64,000 nt of DNA from Cetorhinus maximus (Eukaryota): contig NC_135899.1 of assembly GCF_964194155.1 (NCBI RefSeq), positions 2,542,001-2,606,000 of the forward strand, written 5' to 3'. Below are positions 6,358-21,586 of the stretch, in pieces. How positions within the stretch are numbered: position 1 is the first letter of the stretch; each line of letters opens with the position of its first letter. The position numbers were made by a program, and so were the translations under genes. A model generated the notes under the pieces. The model made no database searches. It saw nothing but the letters and a program-made list of their open reading frames with translations, and was not told the DNA's origin.

Positions 6358-6393
6358 CTCCGCCGGCGTCCGCCCTCACCTGATAAAAATAAG
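6358..6393 (+). promoter_or_regulatory. Core promoter module of H1-like gene B (GTCCGCC-N8-ATAAAAATAAG)
   Basis: 27/36 ungapped identity with the H4 promoter at 21551-21586; lies about 115 nt upstream of the ATG. Confidence 0.7.
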
Positions 6394-6507
6394 CGGCGGC
6401 TCCCCGCTCCTCTTCATCTTCGGGCAGCGTTTGGTTATGAAGATTGCAACGTGGGTGCCAAAAAAGAAATAAGAGATAAAATAGGAGGAGGAGGAGGAGG
6501 AGGAAGG

Positions 6508-7482
6508 ATGGCTGACAACAGCCAGAAGGCGGAAAACGTGGGCGATTCAGGGGGAGGCGGGGGAGCCACCCCGCCCCAGGCTCGAACGACAACCGAGAGA
6601 GGGGGGACCAAGAAGAAGAAGAAGCAGCAGCAGCAAAATAATCAGCAGCAGCAGCAAAATAATCCGCAGCAGCAGCAGCAACAAAATCCGCCGCCGCCCC
6701 CGCCGCCGCCGCAAAATGTGGCGGCGCCCCCGCCCCGCCGCAAGAAGGGACCGACCGTGACCGAGCAGATCCTCCACGTGGCGGCGGCCACCAAGGCCCG
6801 GCGGGGCATCTCGCTGGCCGCCCTCAAGAAGGCGCTTTCGGCCAAGGGCTACGACGTGAGCCGCAACAACACGCGGGTCAACCAGACGGTCAAGCAGCTG
6901 GTCCGGAACGGCTCGCTGGTGCAGACGGCCGGGGTGGGGGCCACGGGCTCCTTCCGCTTGAACCGCGGGTCGGGCGGCGAGGTGGCGGGAGCCGGAGCCG
7001 GCGGGAGAGGCGGCGGCGGCGGCCCCCGGAAGGAGAGGAGGGAAACGGCCAAGAGGAGGGCGGCGGGCCGCCGGCGGTCGCCCCCGTCCCTGCCCCACCC
7101 TCACCCCCTGCAGCACCAGCGGGGCCCCCGGCTCCGCAGGAGGACCTACAGCCGCCGCAAAGCCCCGGCCAAGCAGCCCCAGCGCAAAGCCCGCCGGCGG
7201 GCCCCCCGCTCCCGACGCCGCGGCGGCGGCAAACCCCCCCGCCGGGCGTCGCCGCCCAGGAGCGCCCGGGCGCGGGTCCGCCTGAAGGGCCGAGCCGCCC
7301 CCCACCACCCGCACCCGCAGCGCGGGCGACCCCACCTCTACCGCAAATACAAGGCGGTGCGGGGCGCCAGGAGGGCGGCGCCCGCCGCTCACGGGCACCG
7401 GGGGAGGCCGCCCGGAGCCAGGGGGAAGCGGCTGGTGGGGCGGCAGAGGAGGGTCACCAGGCGGGTGGTCGGAAAATGTTAA
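6508..7482 (+). CDS. Arginine-rich H1-derived, protamine-like protein B (324 aa)
   Basis: First ATG at 6508 (aggATGG). Intact H1 globular domain GPTVTEQIL...ISLAALKKALSAKGYDV...GSLVQTAGVGATGSFRLN, polyQ/polyP N-tail, Arg-rich C-tail, stem-loop. Confidence 0.9.
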   Translation: MADNSQKAENVGDSGGGGGATPPQARTTTERGGTKKKKKQQQQNNQQQQQNNPQQQQQQNPPPPPPPPQNVAAPPPRRKKGPTVTEQILHVAAATKARRGISLAALKKALSAKGYDVSRNNTRVNQTVKQLVRNGSLVQTAGVGATGSFRLNRGSGGEVAGAGAGGRGGGGGPRKERRETAKRRAAGRRRSPPSLPHPHPLQHQRGPRLRRRTYSRRKAPAKQPQRKARRRAPRSRRRGGGKPPRRASPPRSARARVRLKGRAAPHHPHPQRGRPHLYRKYKAVRGARRAAPAAHGHRGRPPGARGKRLVGRQRRVTRRVVGKC

Positions 7483-7540
7483 GGGAGACGTGGGGCAGCA
7501 AAATAAACCATCTCCGTTTCTCTATTTATATATAAACAAC

Positions 7541-7556
7541 GGCTCTTTTCAGAGCC
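7541..7556 (+). terminator. Histone 3' stem-loop of H1-like gene B
   Basis: GGCTCTTTTCAGAGCC-ACCA followed by HDE-like AAAACTGAGCTG. Confidence 0.95.
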
Positions 7557-7902
7557 ACCAAACCTGGAAAAAACTGAGCTGATCGCCTTTGAAATCCTGA
7601 CACGGGCAAAAAAATAAACCATAAAAATTACACTGACTTCCCTTAATAATTAACCAATAATTAACCCTAAAAGTTCCACCCTGGCCACAACATTATTTTA
7701 CATGAGGTTTATTTATGGTCGTAAAATTTAGTTCACTGGGGATTTATTTAACTTGCTGACTTCCCATAGTAACCAATAATTAATTATATCTTGGAATGGA
7801 CTCGAGATGCTGTGTGAGATTTTCCAGCACCTTTTTGTTATTTGTTTCAGGTTTCCAGCATCCGCAGTGTTTTGCCTTCAGCTTCTCGTGTTCTACATTA
7901 GT

Positions 7903-8130
7903 TAAAAGCAAAAAAAAACTGCGGATGCTGGAAATACAAAACAAAAATACCTGGAAAAACTCAGCAGGTCTGACAGCATCAGCGGAGAGGGACACAGTTA
8001 ATGTTTCGAGTCCGAATGACTTTTACTTAGTTCTGTTGAAGGGTCATTCGGACTCGAAATGTTAACTGTTCCTCTCCGTAGATGTTGTCAGACCTGGGTT
8101 TTTTCAGGTATTTTTGTTTATTTTTGTTTT
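7903..8130. mobile_element. Inverted pair of Penelope-like terminal repeats
   Basis: Minus copy about 7903-8022 and plus copy about 8023-8130 of the gaagggtc..gactcgaaa(c/t)gttaact..gatgctg..agacctg repeat. Confidence 0.7.
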
Positions 8131-8140
8131 GTAAAATTAG

Positions 8141-8475
8141 TTAACTTGAGATTTATTCAACTTGCTGACTTCTCCTTAATAATTATATCGTCTCCCACAT
8201 TGGCCATAAAACTATTTAACTTGAGATTTATTCAACTTGCTGACTTCTCCTTAATGATTATATCGTCTCCCACATTGACCATAAAACTATTTTACTTGAG
8301 ATTTATTCAACTTGCTGACTTCTCCTTAATGATTATATCGTCTCCCACATTGACCATAAAACTATTTTACTTGAGATTTATTCAACTTGCTGACTTCTCC
8401 TTAATAGTTATATCGTCTCCCACATTGACCATAAAACTATTTTACTTGAGATTTATTCAACTTGCTGACTTTCAT
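8141..8475. repeat. 75-bp tandem repeat, about 4.5 copies
   Basis: ttgagatttattcaacttgctgact recurs at 8146, 8221, 8296, 8371 and 8446. Confidence 0.95.
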
Positions 8476-19112: not shown

Positions 19113-19425
19113 CAAGGCTCCTTAGACAGCACCCTCCATACCCGTGACCCCTATCATCTAGAAGGACAAAGGCAGCAGACACATGGAAACACCACCACCT
19201 GGAAGTTCCCCTCCAAGCCCCTCACCATCCTGATTTGGAAATATATCGCTATTCTTTCACTGTGGCTGGGTAAAAATCCTGGAACTTCCTTCCTAACAGC
19301 ACTGTAGGTGCACCTACACCACATGGACTGCAATGGTTCAAGAAGGCAGCTCACTAACACCTTCTGAAGGGGCAATTAGGGATGGGCAATAAATGCCAGC
19401 CATGCCCACATCCCACGAACAAGCA
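19113..19425 (+). mobile_element. 3' fragment of the LINE family seen at 60350-62350
   Basis: Same 3' sequence (accaccacctggaagttcccctccaag...gggcaattagggatgggcaataaatg). Confidence 0.75.
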
Positions 19426-19726
19426 AAAATAGTCAAAAAAATAGAAACAGGATAAATGAAATGTATTGGAACAATGAAAATGCCTGCTGGAAGGATCGAG
19501 ACATACATTGAGACGTAGAAGTCATAGTCAGAAAGTATACAGCACAGAAACAGGCCCTTCGGCCCATTTTGTCCCTGCTGGCCATGAAGCACCTATCTAT
19601 TCTAATCCCATTTTCCAGCACTTAGTCCAAAGCCCATTCTTTACCGCAGAGGGCTGTAGAGGCTGGGTCATTAAGTATATTCAAGGCTGAAATAGATGGA
19701 TTTTTAATCAGTAAGGGAATCAAGGT

Positions 19727-20449
19727 AAAAACAAAAAACTTCGAATGCTGGAAATCCAAAACAAAAACAAAAATACCTGTAAAAACTCAGCAGGTCTGGC
19801 AACATCTGCGGAGAGGAACACAGTTAACGTTTTGAGTCTGAATGACCCTTCAACAGAACTAAGTAAAAATAGAAGAGAGGTGAAATATAAGTTGGTTTTA
19901 AGGGGGGTGTGACAAGTAGAGCTGGATAGAGGGCCAGTGATAGGTGGAGATAACCAAAAGATGTCACAGACAAAAGGACAAAGAGGAGTTGAAGGTAGTG
20001 ATATTATCTAAGGAATATGCTAATTAAGGGTAGAAAGCAGGACAAGCAAGGTACAGATAGCCCTAGTGGAGGTGGGGTGGGGTGAAGGAATCAAAAAAGG
20101 CTAAAAGGTAGAGATAAAACAATGGATGGAAATACATTTAAAAATAATGGAAGTAGGTGGGAAAAGAAAAATTTATTAAATTATTGGAAAAAAGTTGGGG
20201 GGGGTGGGAAATCAGAAAGGGGGTGGGGATGGAGGACAGAGTTCATGATGTAAAATTGTTGAACTCAATATTCAGTCCGGAAGGCTGTAAAGTGCCTAGT
20301 TGGAAGATGAGGCGCTGTTCCTCCAATTTGTGTTGAGCTTCACTGGAACATTGCAGTAGGCCAAGGACGGACATGTGGGCATGAGAGCAGGGTGGAGTGT
20401 TGAAATGGCAAGCGCCAGGGAGGTCTGGGTAATGCTTGCAGACAGACCG
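19727..20449 (-). mobile_element. 5'-truncated Penelope-like retroelement with 14-bp target-site duplication
   Basis: Minus strand encodes GIY-YIG C-terminal EQRLIFQLGTLQPSGLNIEFNNF, followed by the terminal repeat. Flanked by AAGGGAATCAAGGT at 19713-19726 and 20450-20463 inside a CR1 tail. Confidence 0.85.
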
Positions 20450-20889
20450 AAGGGAATCAAGGTTTATGGGGAAAAGGCAGGAAAGTGGGGTTGAGGATTA
20501 TCAGATCAGCCATGATCTCATTGAATGGTGGAGCAGACTCGATGGGCCAAATGGCCTACTTCTGTTCCTACGTCTTATGGTCCCTGTATTCTATGGTGTT
20601 TCAAGTGATCATCTAAATGCTTCTTAAATGTTATCACTCCCTCAGGCAGTGTGTTGCAGATTCCTACCGCCCTCTGGGTGATTTCTTTCCCCTCAAATCC
20701 CCTCTAAACCTCCTGCCCCTTACCTTAAATCTATGCCCCCTGGTTATTGACACCTCCGCTAAGGGGAAAAGCTTCTTCCTATCCACCCTATCTATGCCCC
20801 TCATAATTTTGTATTATCATCCCCCCCCCCCCCCCCCCCCGCCCCCCCTCAGCCTTCTCAGCTCTAAGGAAAACAACAATAGTCTATCC

Positions 20890-21112
20890 AGAATTACCTG
20901 GAAAAACTCAGCAGGTCTGGCAGCATCGGTGGAGAAGAGAAGAGTTGACGTTTCGAGTCCAATGACCCTTCAACTGTTCTTTTGAAGGGTCACTGGACTC
21001 GAAACGTCGACTCTTTTCTTCTCCGCCGATGCTGCCAGACCTGCTGAGTTTTTCCAGGTAATTCTGTTTATGTTTTGGATTTCCAGAATCCGCAGTAGTT
21101 TTTTTGTTTTTA
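20890..21112. mobile_element. Inverted pair of Penelope-like terminal repeats inserted in a CR1 fragment
   Basis: Near-perfect inverted arms at about 20890-20973 and 20981-21066. Confidence 0.75.
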
Positions 21113-21367
21113 CTAGTCTCTCTTCATAGTTGAAACACTCCAGCCCAGGCAGCATCCTGGTGAATCTCCTCTGCTCCCCCTCCAGTGCAACCACATCCTT
21201 CCTATAGTGAGGAGGGGCTTTAATAAAACGCAGTTGAAGGGGACAAGGACAAAGTCAGGGACGAGGGTAAGGGCAGACCAAATGGACTGATCAATTTCTT
21301 CTCCCAGTCGATGCTGCACAACCTGCATTTGCCTTTTCTAATTCAAATTTCGCTGCATTTTGATGGA

Positions 21368-21399
<32 letters not shown>

Positions 21400-21550
21400 C
21401 TTTTGTTTGCTTGTTTTTTTGTGCGTGTAATTGTCTCCTGAGGGTACTGTCGAATATCGGGCTACTTGAGGAAACTATCTCTTACACACACACACACACG
21501 CGCAACAAAAAGTGTCATTTTCATCCTGACTCCTCCCAATTCAAAACCTC

Positions 21551-21586
21551 CTCCAACCAGGTCCGCCAGCACCGCATAAAAATAAG
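21551..21586 (+). promoter_or_regulatory. H4 core promoter (GGTCCG site-II-like element plus TATA-like ATAAAAATAAG)
   Basis: ctccaaccaGGTCCGccagcaccgcATAAAAATAAG. Confidence 0.75.

Follow-up and report, generated by a model that had tools for sequence, protein, structure and literature searches.

The first 24 kb of a 64,000-nucleotide (nt) stretch of Cetorhinus maximus DNA (NC_135899.1, positions 2,542,001 to 2,606,000; the window) hold a divergent shark histone cluster comprising H2A, H1-like genes A to E, a variant H4 and a divergent H2B. We found a promoter module, consisting of GTCCG, a 9-base-pair (bp) spacer and a TATA-variant 7-mer, upstream of the variant H4 and of the H1-like genes B, E and C. 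Judged by sequence comparison, the module is a promoter element that is real and conserved; its type is known, its setting is new. It is probably the core promoter of these genes, with a putative HINFP site set 9 bp before a TATA variant, and most likely descends from an ancestral H1 promoter. The four copies are:

6368..6388, plus strand: gene B module; GTCCG at 6368-6372, GATAAAA at 6382-6388; 140 nt before the ATG.
21561..21581, plus strand: H4 module; GTCCG at 21561-21565 (as GGTCCG), CATAAAA at 21575-21581; 155 nt before the ATG.
16858..16878, minus strand: gene E module; GTCCG at 16878-16874, TTGAAAA at 16864-16858; 214 nt before the ATG.
10947..10967, minus strand: gene C module; GTCCG at 10967-10963, TTGAAAT at 10953-10947 (three mismatches to TATAAAA); 61 nt before the ATG.

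The motif strings that a preliminary description of this DNA had assigned to B, C, E and H4 all lie where it placed them, and its ungapped alignment of B with H4 was reproduced at 27 of 36 letters. Likewise, the identical spacing it had given as N8, counted from the end of a 7-mer to ATAAAA, is the same geometry as GTCCG-N9-TATA 7-mer, and its reading of GTCCG as an element of the H4 site II or H4-box type, held at a constant distance ahead of a TATA variant, stood. A contig of run X2 (16797-16889) spans the gene E module with zero differences. Neither CCAAT nor the H1 box AAACACA occurs within 250 nt upstream of A, B, C or E; in keeping with the reported lack of AAACACA, the 320 nt upstream of all seven histone ATGs hold no sense-strand copy. 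The H2A and H2B genes of the cluster serve as internal controls. H2A keeps an ordinary CCAAT/TATA promoter, H2B has CCAAT boxes, the octamer ATTTGCAT and TTAAATA, and both are without the module.

Chance tests inside the window gave mixed results. In the cleanest of them, all of the window's 38 GTCCG sites were ranked by how closely the 7-mer at spacer 9 resembles TATAAAA. Three of the four promoter sites showed at most two mismatches, whereas none of the 34 other sites did (Fisher p=4.7e-4). Mismatches numbered one in B, one in H4, two in E and three in C, the last tying with one background site. When three mismatches are allowed other spacers give similar counts (2-7), and gene C alone is therefore not distinctive. 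We also made 5000 dinucleotide shuffles of the 250 nt upstream of the seven histone genes. The presence of GTCCG in 4/7 promoters was matched by 132 of the 5000, and that of GTCCG[CT]C, a 7-mer picked after the fact, by none. The ungapped B-H4 score of 18 was reached in 0/300 shuffles, taking the best of 21 pairs; these shuffles underrate the background, because real low-complexity promoter pairs score 15-22 (B-E reaches 22 through a GGA run).

Promoters of relatives were read indirectly, from gene models that are over-extended upstream and thus translate their own promoter DNA, with spacer 9 set from the window beforehand. Two such models with the same globular domain, P0090 (Callorhinchus milii) and P0118, represent one elephant-shark H1-like gene. 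They are mutually compatible in offset frames over 11 codons (the next best run is 3), and their back-translation fixes the upstream DNA uniquely as CGTCCG-N9-TATAAAA. GTCCG-N9-BATAW is compatible with three of the five genes that have long 5' extensions, with shuffle p values of 0.020 for the elephant-shark gene, 0.024 for Narcine P0218 and 0.067 for Rhinoraja P0013; four short-extension models did not show the pattern. A further copy lies outside these models, in a metagenome contig (L022) where an H1.0/H5-like H1 gene adjoins H4: ACGTCCG-N9-CATATAA at 925-947, 106 nt before the ATG. L022 was the sole one of two H1 matches shown with enough upstream DNA. Among other H1s the N9 pattern fits 1/122 (teleost P0140, Myripristis) versus 1.3 expected. 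CCAATCA is compatible with 13/32 extended H1 models versus 5.1 shuffled, and by our reading of the sequences the clearest of these look like tetrapod H1s.

We compared the globular domains with known linker-histone families. Gene B reaches 76-81 bits with H1.1-H1.4/GH1 but 30-35 bits with H1.0/H5; C and E likewise score far higher against H1.1-H1.4/GH1, in the same order. On these scores B, C and E are of the replication-dependent H1 lineage and outside H1.0/H5, an identity that the bit scores rule out and a distinction missing from the preliminary description. A tree built on few columns, which includes neither the window's gene C nor an H1.0/H5 outgroup and in which the branch of gene A is very long, places B and E in two distinct families, both supported; the relatives in the C family group apart from these, weakly supported. 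An arginine-rich tail on an H1 globular domain is a mark of germline H1 variants and protamine-like proteins. Arginine makes up 14-18% of B, C and E versus 7-8% lysine, which is suggestive, but no more than that, of germline use.

The module resembles site II of H4 promoters, the subtype-specific element bound by HINFP (HiNF-P, MIZF), in having a GTCCG core close before a TATA variant on a stem-loop H4 gene. Unlike site II, it is here also found on linker-histone genes, its TATA variants are non-canonical and the upstream half of the site has diverged from the consensus. The fixed spacing to TATA, as in site II of canonical vertebrate H4 genes, is seen in B, H4, E, weakly in C, in the elephant shark and in L022. 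An H4 box is described for vertebrate H1.0/H5 promoters in an excerpt of a paper citing Peretti and Khochbin 1997 (PMC6027317). The shark genes are similar to H1.0/H5 in carrying an H4-type element in the proximal promoter without a CCAAT box, but differ in belonging to the replication-dependent lineage, in being clustered with core histones, in their stem-loops and also in the absence of AAACACA; genes of the H1.0/H5 kind are solitary and polyadenylated and lack a stem-loop. Invertebrate H1 promoters can carry an H4 box as well, and L022 has the same GTCCG-N9-TATA geometry; unlike that of shark B, C and E, its globular domain is H1.0/H5-like. Protein lineage, stem-loop 3' ends and clustering are shared with the replication-dependent H1s of tetrapods, including their divergent germline member H1t. 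In contrast, tetrapod replication-dependent H1 promoters have an H1 box and CCAAT before TATA, and shark A, B, C and E have neither.

For H4 the module would be its ordinary subtype-specific element. In B, E and probably C it would stand where tetrapod replication-dependent H1s have their CCAAT box, a placement that H1.0/H5 and an invertebrate-type H1 would share. Most likely it came from an ancestral H1 promoter and was kept while this H1 subfamily of cartilaginous fishes expanded, decaying in gene A along with the globular domain. We propose that HINFP binds the GTCCG site and recruits RNA polymerase II (Pol II), with TBP on the TATA variant. Transcription would then start about 25-31 nt downstream, at ~6410-6416 in B, ~21599-21606 in H4, ~10920-10925 in C and ~16833-16836 in E, and the mRNAs would be cut at the stem-loop. 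The HINFP core is given as CGGAC in part of a paper citing Sekimata 2004, and GTCCG, as its reverse complement, is thus an HINFP-type core (PMC8717564). Another excerpt describes HINFP recruiting NPAT and Pol II at H4 promoters (PMC5706932). Human chromatin immunoprecipitation sequencing, as far as the excerpted text of PMC5283814 goes, places HINFP at H4, H2B, H1F0 and H1FX, with NPAT not found at H1F0 and H1FX. A single activator common to the variant H4 and these H1s is plausible. Since human H1F0 and H1FX bind HINFP without NPAT in that excerpt (PMC5283814), a shared site does not imply co-expression in S phase. Shared timing or tissue, with the germline guessed from the arginine-rich tails, is a weaker claim than the shared activator, and one we would sooner doubt than assert.

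Several observations weigh against the module as an inherited HINFP-type core promoter. Histone mRNAs tend to have shorter leaders than those predicted here for H4 (~110 nt) and E (~170 nt), and TGACG, CCAAT and ATTTGCA in the H4 leader could form a second promoter. Only one relative gene is fixed by back-translation; among the five long extensions, that of Heterodontus P0074 is incompatible with the pattern and that of Narcine P0015 is compatible only with a non-TATA variant of it. The N9 pattern fits 4/50 proteins that we grouped as cartilaginous-fish variant H1s versus 0.9 shuffled (13/1000 shuffles). Two of the four fits come from a single gene, and a peak of similar height at N6, with 5 of the same 50 proteins, arises in true coding sequence. 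GTCCG occurs within 200 nt in 12/72 fetched non-vertebrate H4 loci, and in most of those its spacer to a good TATA is 11, 12, 19 or 21, so N9 is not general; a second set of apparently non-vertebrate H4 loci showed GTCCG-N9-TATA in 0/37 distinct promoters. The factor named for the H4 box of H1.0 is HBP1 rather than HINFP in the excerpt of PMC6027317, which makes it a rival factor. Inside the window, an unbiased count of 7-mers common to at least 3/7 promoters found 4 versus a shuffle mean of 2.7, not an enrichment. The TATA boxes of C and E are poor, three mismatches to TATAAAA, as in gene C, are common at other spacers, and GTCCG is present in 50% of shuffles of the gene E upstream region.

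These last points fit the alternative that the module is real only in H4 and B, with C, E and A being chance matches in GC-rich DNA and having their promoters elsewhere. The extended models of the C and E families, none of which shows the pattern, agree with it, though most are too short to reach the promoter. Among the 38 sites, however, E comes third and C shares fourth place at the pre-set spacer, and the 250 nt upstream of each gene hold no alternative TATA and no CCAAT. A weak hint in the same direction is an X2 contig that fuses the E module to ATG-proximal DNA with 175 nt skipped, as if from a paralogue that keeps the module. We regard this alternative as unlikely.

Less likely still is a local origin of the module in the H1 genes, which would have acquired it from the H4 gene next to them through gene conversion or promoter capture, and not by ancestral descent. 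The 27/36 match of B and H4 includes 11 equal letters over and beyond TATA and tops the 21 pairs except for the GGA microsatellite match, as local transfer would predict. Yet the module is found in several H1 subfamilies that are separate in the tree, in a holocephalan gene and in an invertebrate-type H1, and outside the core C, E and A are unlike the H4 copy. Conversion of B alone, on top of shared ancestry, could have taken place. Least probable of all is that the A-rich box of H4 and E lies in an untranslated first exon before an intron of the 5' untranslated region, or that H4 uses a TATA-less promoter with cAMP response elements and CCAAT between module and ATG: by eye, H4 has GTGAGC after the A-rich box and a pyrimidine tract with CAG ending near 21698, gene E has a pyrimidine tract with CAG 12 nt before its ATG, and the H4 leader has TGACG at -109 and -39, CCAAT at -98 and ATTTGCA at -73, but gene B carries the same A-rich 11-mer without a donor site, the elephant-shark gene has TATAAAA with no mismatch at this spacing, and stem-loop histone genes are intronless as a rule, according to part of PMC5706932.

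Taken as an inherited core promoter, the module appears, from the relatives' sequences, to have been kept by related fishes for hundreds of millions of years; chimaeras and sharks split ~420 million years ago. That an H1 promoter can carry an H4 box was known already. What appears new is its presence on clustered, stem-loop vertebrate H1s of the replication-dependent lineage, counter to an excerpt of the review PMC6027317, in which the H4 box is held to be exclusive to differentiation-dependent H1 genes. PMC6615755, PMC2880410 and PMC8857922 had nothing further on this element. We found no paper on these shark genes or promoters, or on the arginine-rich shark H1 variants, in the literature searched, which is thin on subscription journals, older histone-promoter work and supplements. 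A conserved H4 box on such H1s of cartilaginous fishes would uncouple promoter type, protein lineage and 3' processing, and would allow the direction in which H1 promoters evolved to be tested with public genomes. The data also point to a conserved family of arginine-rich shark H1 variants.

A broader proposal, on balance rather unlikely, is that arginine-rich H1 paralogues and a variant H4 have been kept in cartilaginous fishes as an ancient cluster of dedicated, probably germline, histone genes that HINFP runs as one regulon, the H4 box being ancestral for the replication-dependent H1s of jawed vertebrates and CCAAT a later replacement in tetrapods. If true, the H4 box would not mark differentiation-specific H1s. 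Teleost-type H1 models share a conserved non-CCAAT element at the module spacing, P0140 being compatible with GGTCCG-N9-TATAA, and this hints in the direction of an ancestral H4 box.

The extended teleost-type H1 models P0146, P0180, P0190, P0192, P0214, P0222-P0224 (Poecilia) and P0140 (Myripristis) share L-H-G-[SP]-[HR], with a TATA-compatible residue pair three codons on, a conserved non-CCAAT element at the module spacing. Among them only P0140 is compatible with GGTCCG.

Gene A holds a decayed copy of the module:

3953..3973, minus strand: gene A decayed module; GCCCG-N9-TTGATCT at 3973-3953; 85 nt before the ATG.

The best copy in gene A had been given as TTCCGCT; we replace it with this site, which MAFFT puts in the same register. 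It has one mismatch in the core and on score alone ties with another weak site. Compared by eye, its core and flank share 10 of 11 letters with the elephant-shark gene, and Narcine P0218, of the gene A family, has its motif 28 codons before the start, the same distance as -85. The closest matches of gene A are P0096, P0089, P0218 and P0090. Its protein gives no Pfam linker-histone match, in-frame substitutions are dense in the second half of its globular domain, and the module has lost its core T and TATA. Joint decay of promoter and domain would fit a gene freed from selection.

The genes of the cluster and their 3' ends are:

1801..2190, minus strand: H2A.
3316..3888, minus strand: H1-like gene A; open frame with decayed globular domain; stem-loop at 3240-3284.
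6508..7482, plus strand: H1-like gene B; 324 amino acids, 17.6% arginine and 7.4% lysine; replication-dependent H1 lineage.
7536..7581, plus strand: gene B histone 3' stem-loop (Rfam RF00032).
10406..10906, minus strand: H1-like gene C; 166 amino acids, start at ATG 10906.
10363..10378, minus strand: gene C stem-loop; pattern match, under the Rfam gathering score.
14315..14500, minus strand: gene D; limited to a basic C-terminal tail and its stem-loop.
15996..16664, minus strand: H1-like gene E; 222 amino acids; replication-dependent H1 lineage.
15892..15936, minus strand: gene E stem-loop (Rfam).
21716..22027, plus strand: variant H4.
22100..22115, plus strand: H4 stem-loop; pattern match.
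22963..23343, plus strand: divergent H2B.

All cluster genes have 3' stem-loops, those of A, B, D and E above the Rfam gathering cut-off, those of C, H4 and H2A as pattern matches and that of H2B by eye. The rest of gene D, including any promoter, is probably in a gap of 200 N at 14501-14700; the missing letters were absent from the contigs of runs X1, X2, X4 and X5 over 13900-17300, and X1, X2 and X4, being one sample, are not independent support. Gene C is taken to start at ATG 10906 because its relatives start with MP[KR]. An in-frame ATG at 10948 sits within the TATA-like box of gene C, and was ruled out as the main start, as relatives start at MP; a Heterodontus C-family model likewise starts with MG, 10 residues before its MP start. 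Contigs that differ over the gene E coding region (15990-16750) suggest paralogues elsewhere, and one X2 contig joins 16684 to 16860, a short-leader copy seen in a single contig with 30 letters on the shorter side. The predicted leader of gene B holds an 11-codon upstream open reading frame (6437-6472), out of frame with the main one.

The variant H4 differs at five residues from the majority of 70 fetched H4s, and the identical protein is recorded on six contigs. Its leader (21590-21715) contains two copies of TGACG, a CCAAT/ATTGG palindrome, ATTTGCA, which resembles an octamer, and candidate splice signals. The H2B (22963-23343; 126 amino acids) is arginine-rich, strongly divergent and the sole member of its 90% cluster, yet has a canonical octamer promoter. 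Named relatives of the B family occur in sharks and rays, those of the C and E families in sharks. Several B-, C- and E-family relatives per species lie on contigs of equal length, for example in Heterodontus and Heptranchias, which suggests that the cluster is conserved.

Alignment searches gave no locus for the B family in metagenome and viral contigs, none for canonical H1 in genome and viral contigs, and none for H4 in plasmids. L081-L140 (e.g. contig CBDCWH010000001.1) are tandem eukaryotic H4 repeats, probably of an animal host, in prokaryotic bins, and are most likely contamination. Elsewhere in the window, a SAPCD2-like gene, identified by Pfam SAPC2_N, has its first exon at 43361-43789 and a GTCCG at -43 without the TATA spacing. 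A tandem repeat of ~61 bp and an AT-rich degenerate repeat were seen by eye at 8140-8480 and 11140-11800, respectively.

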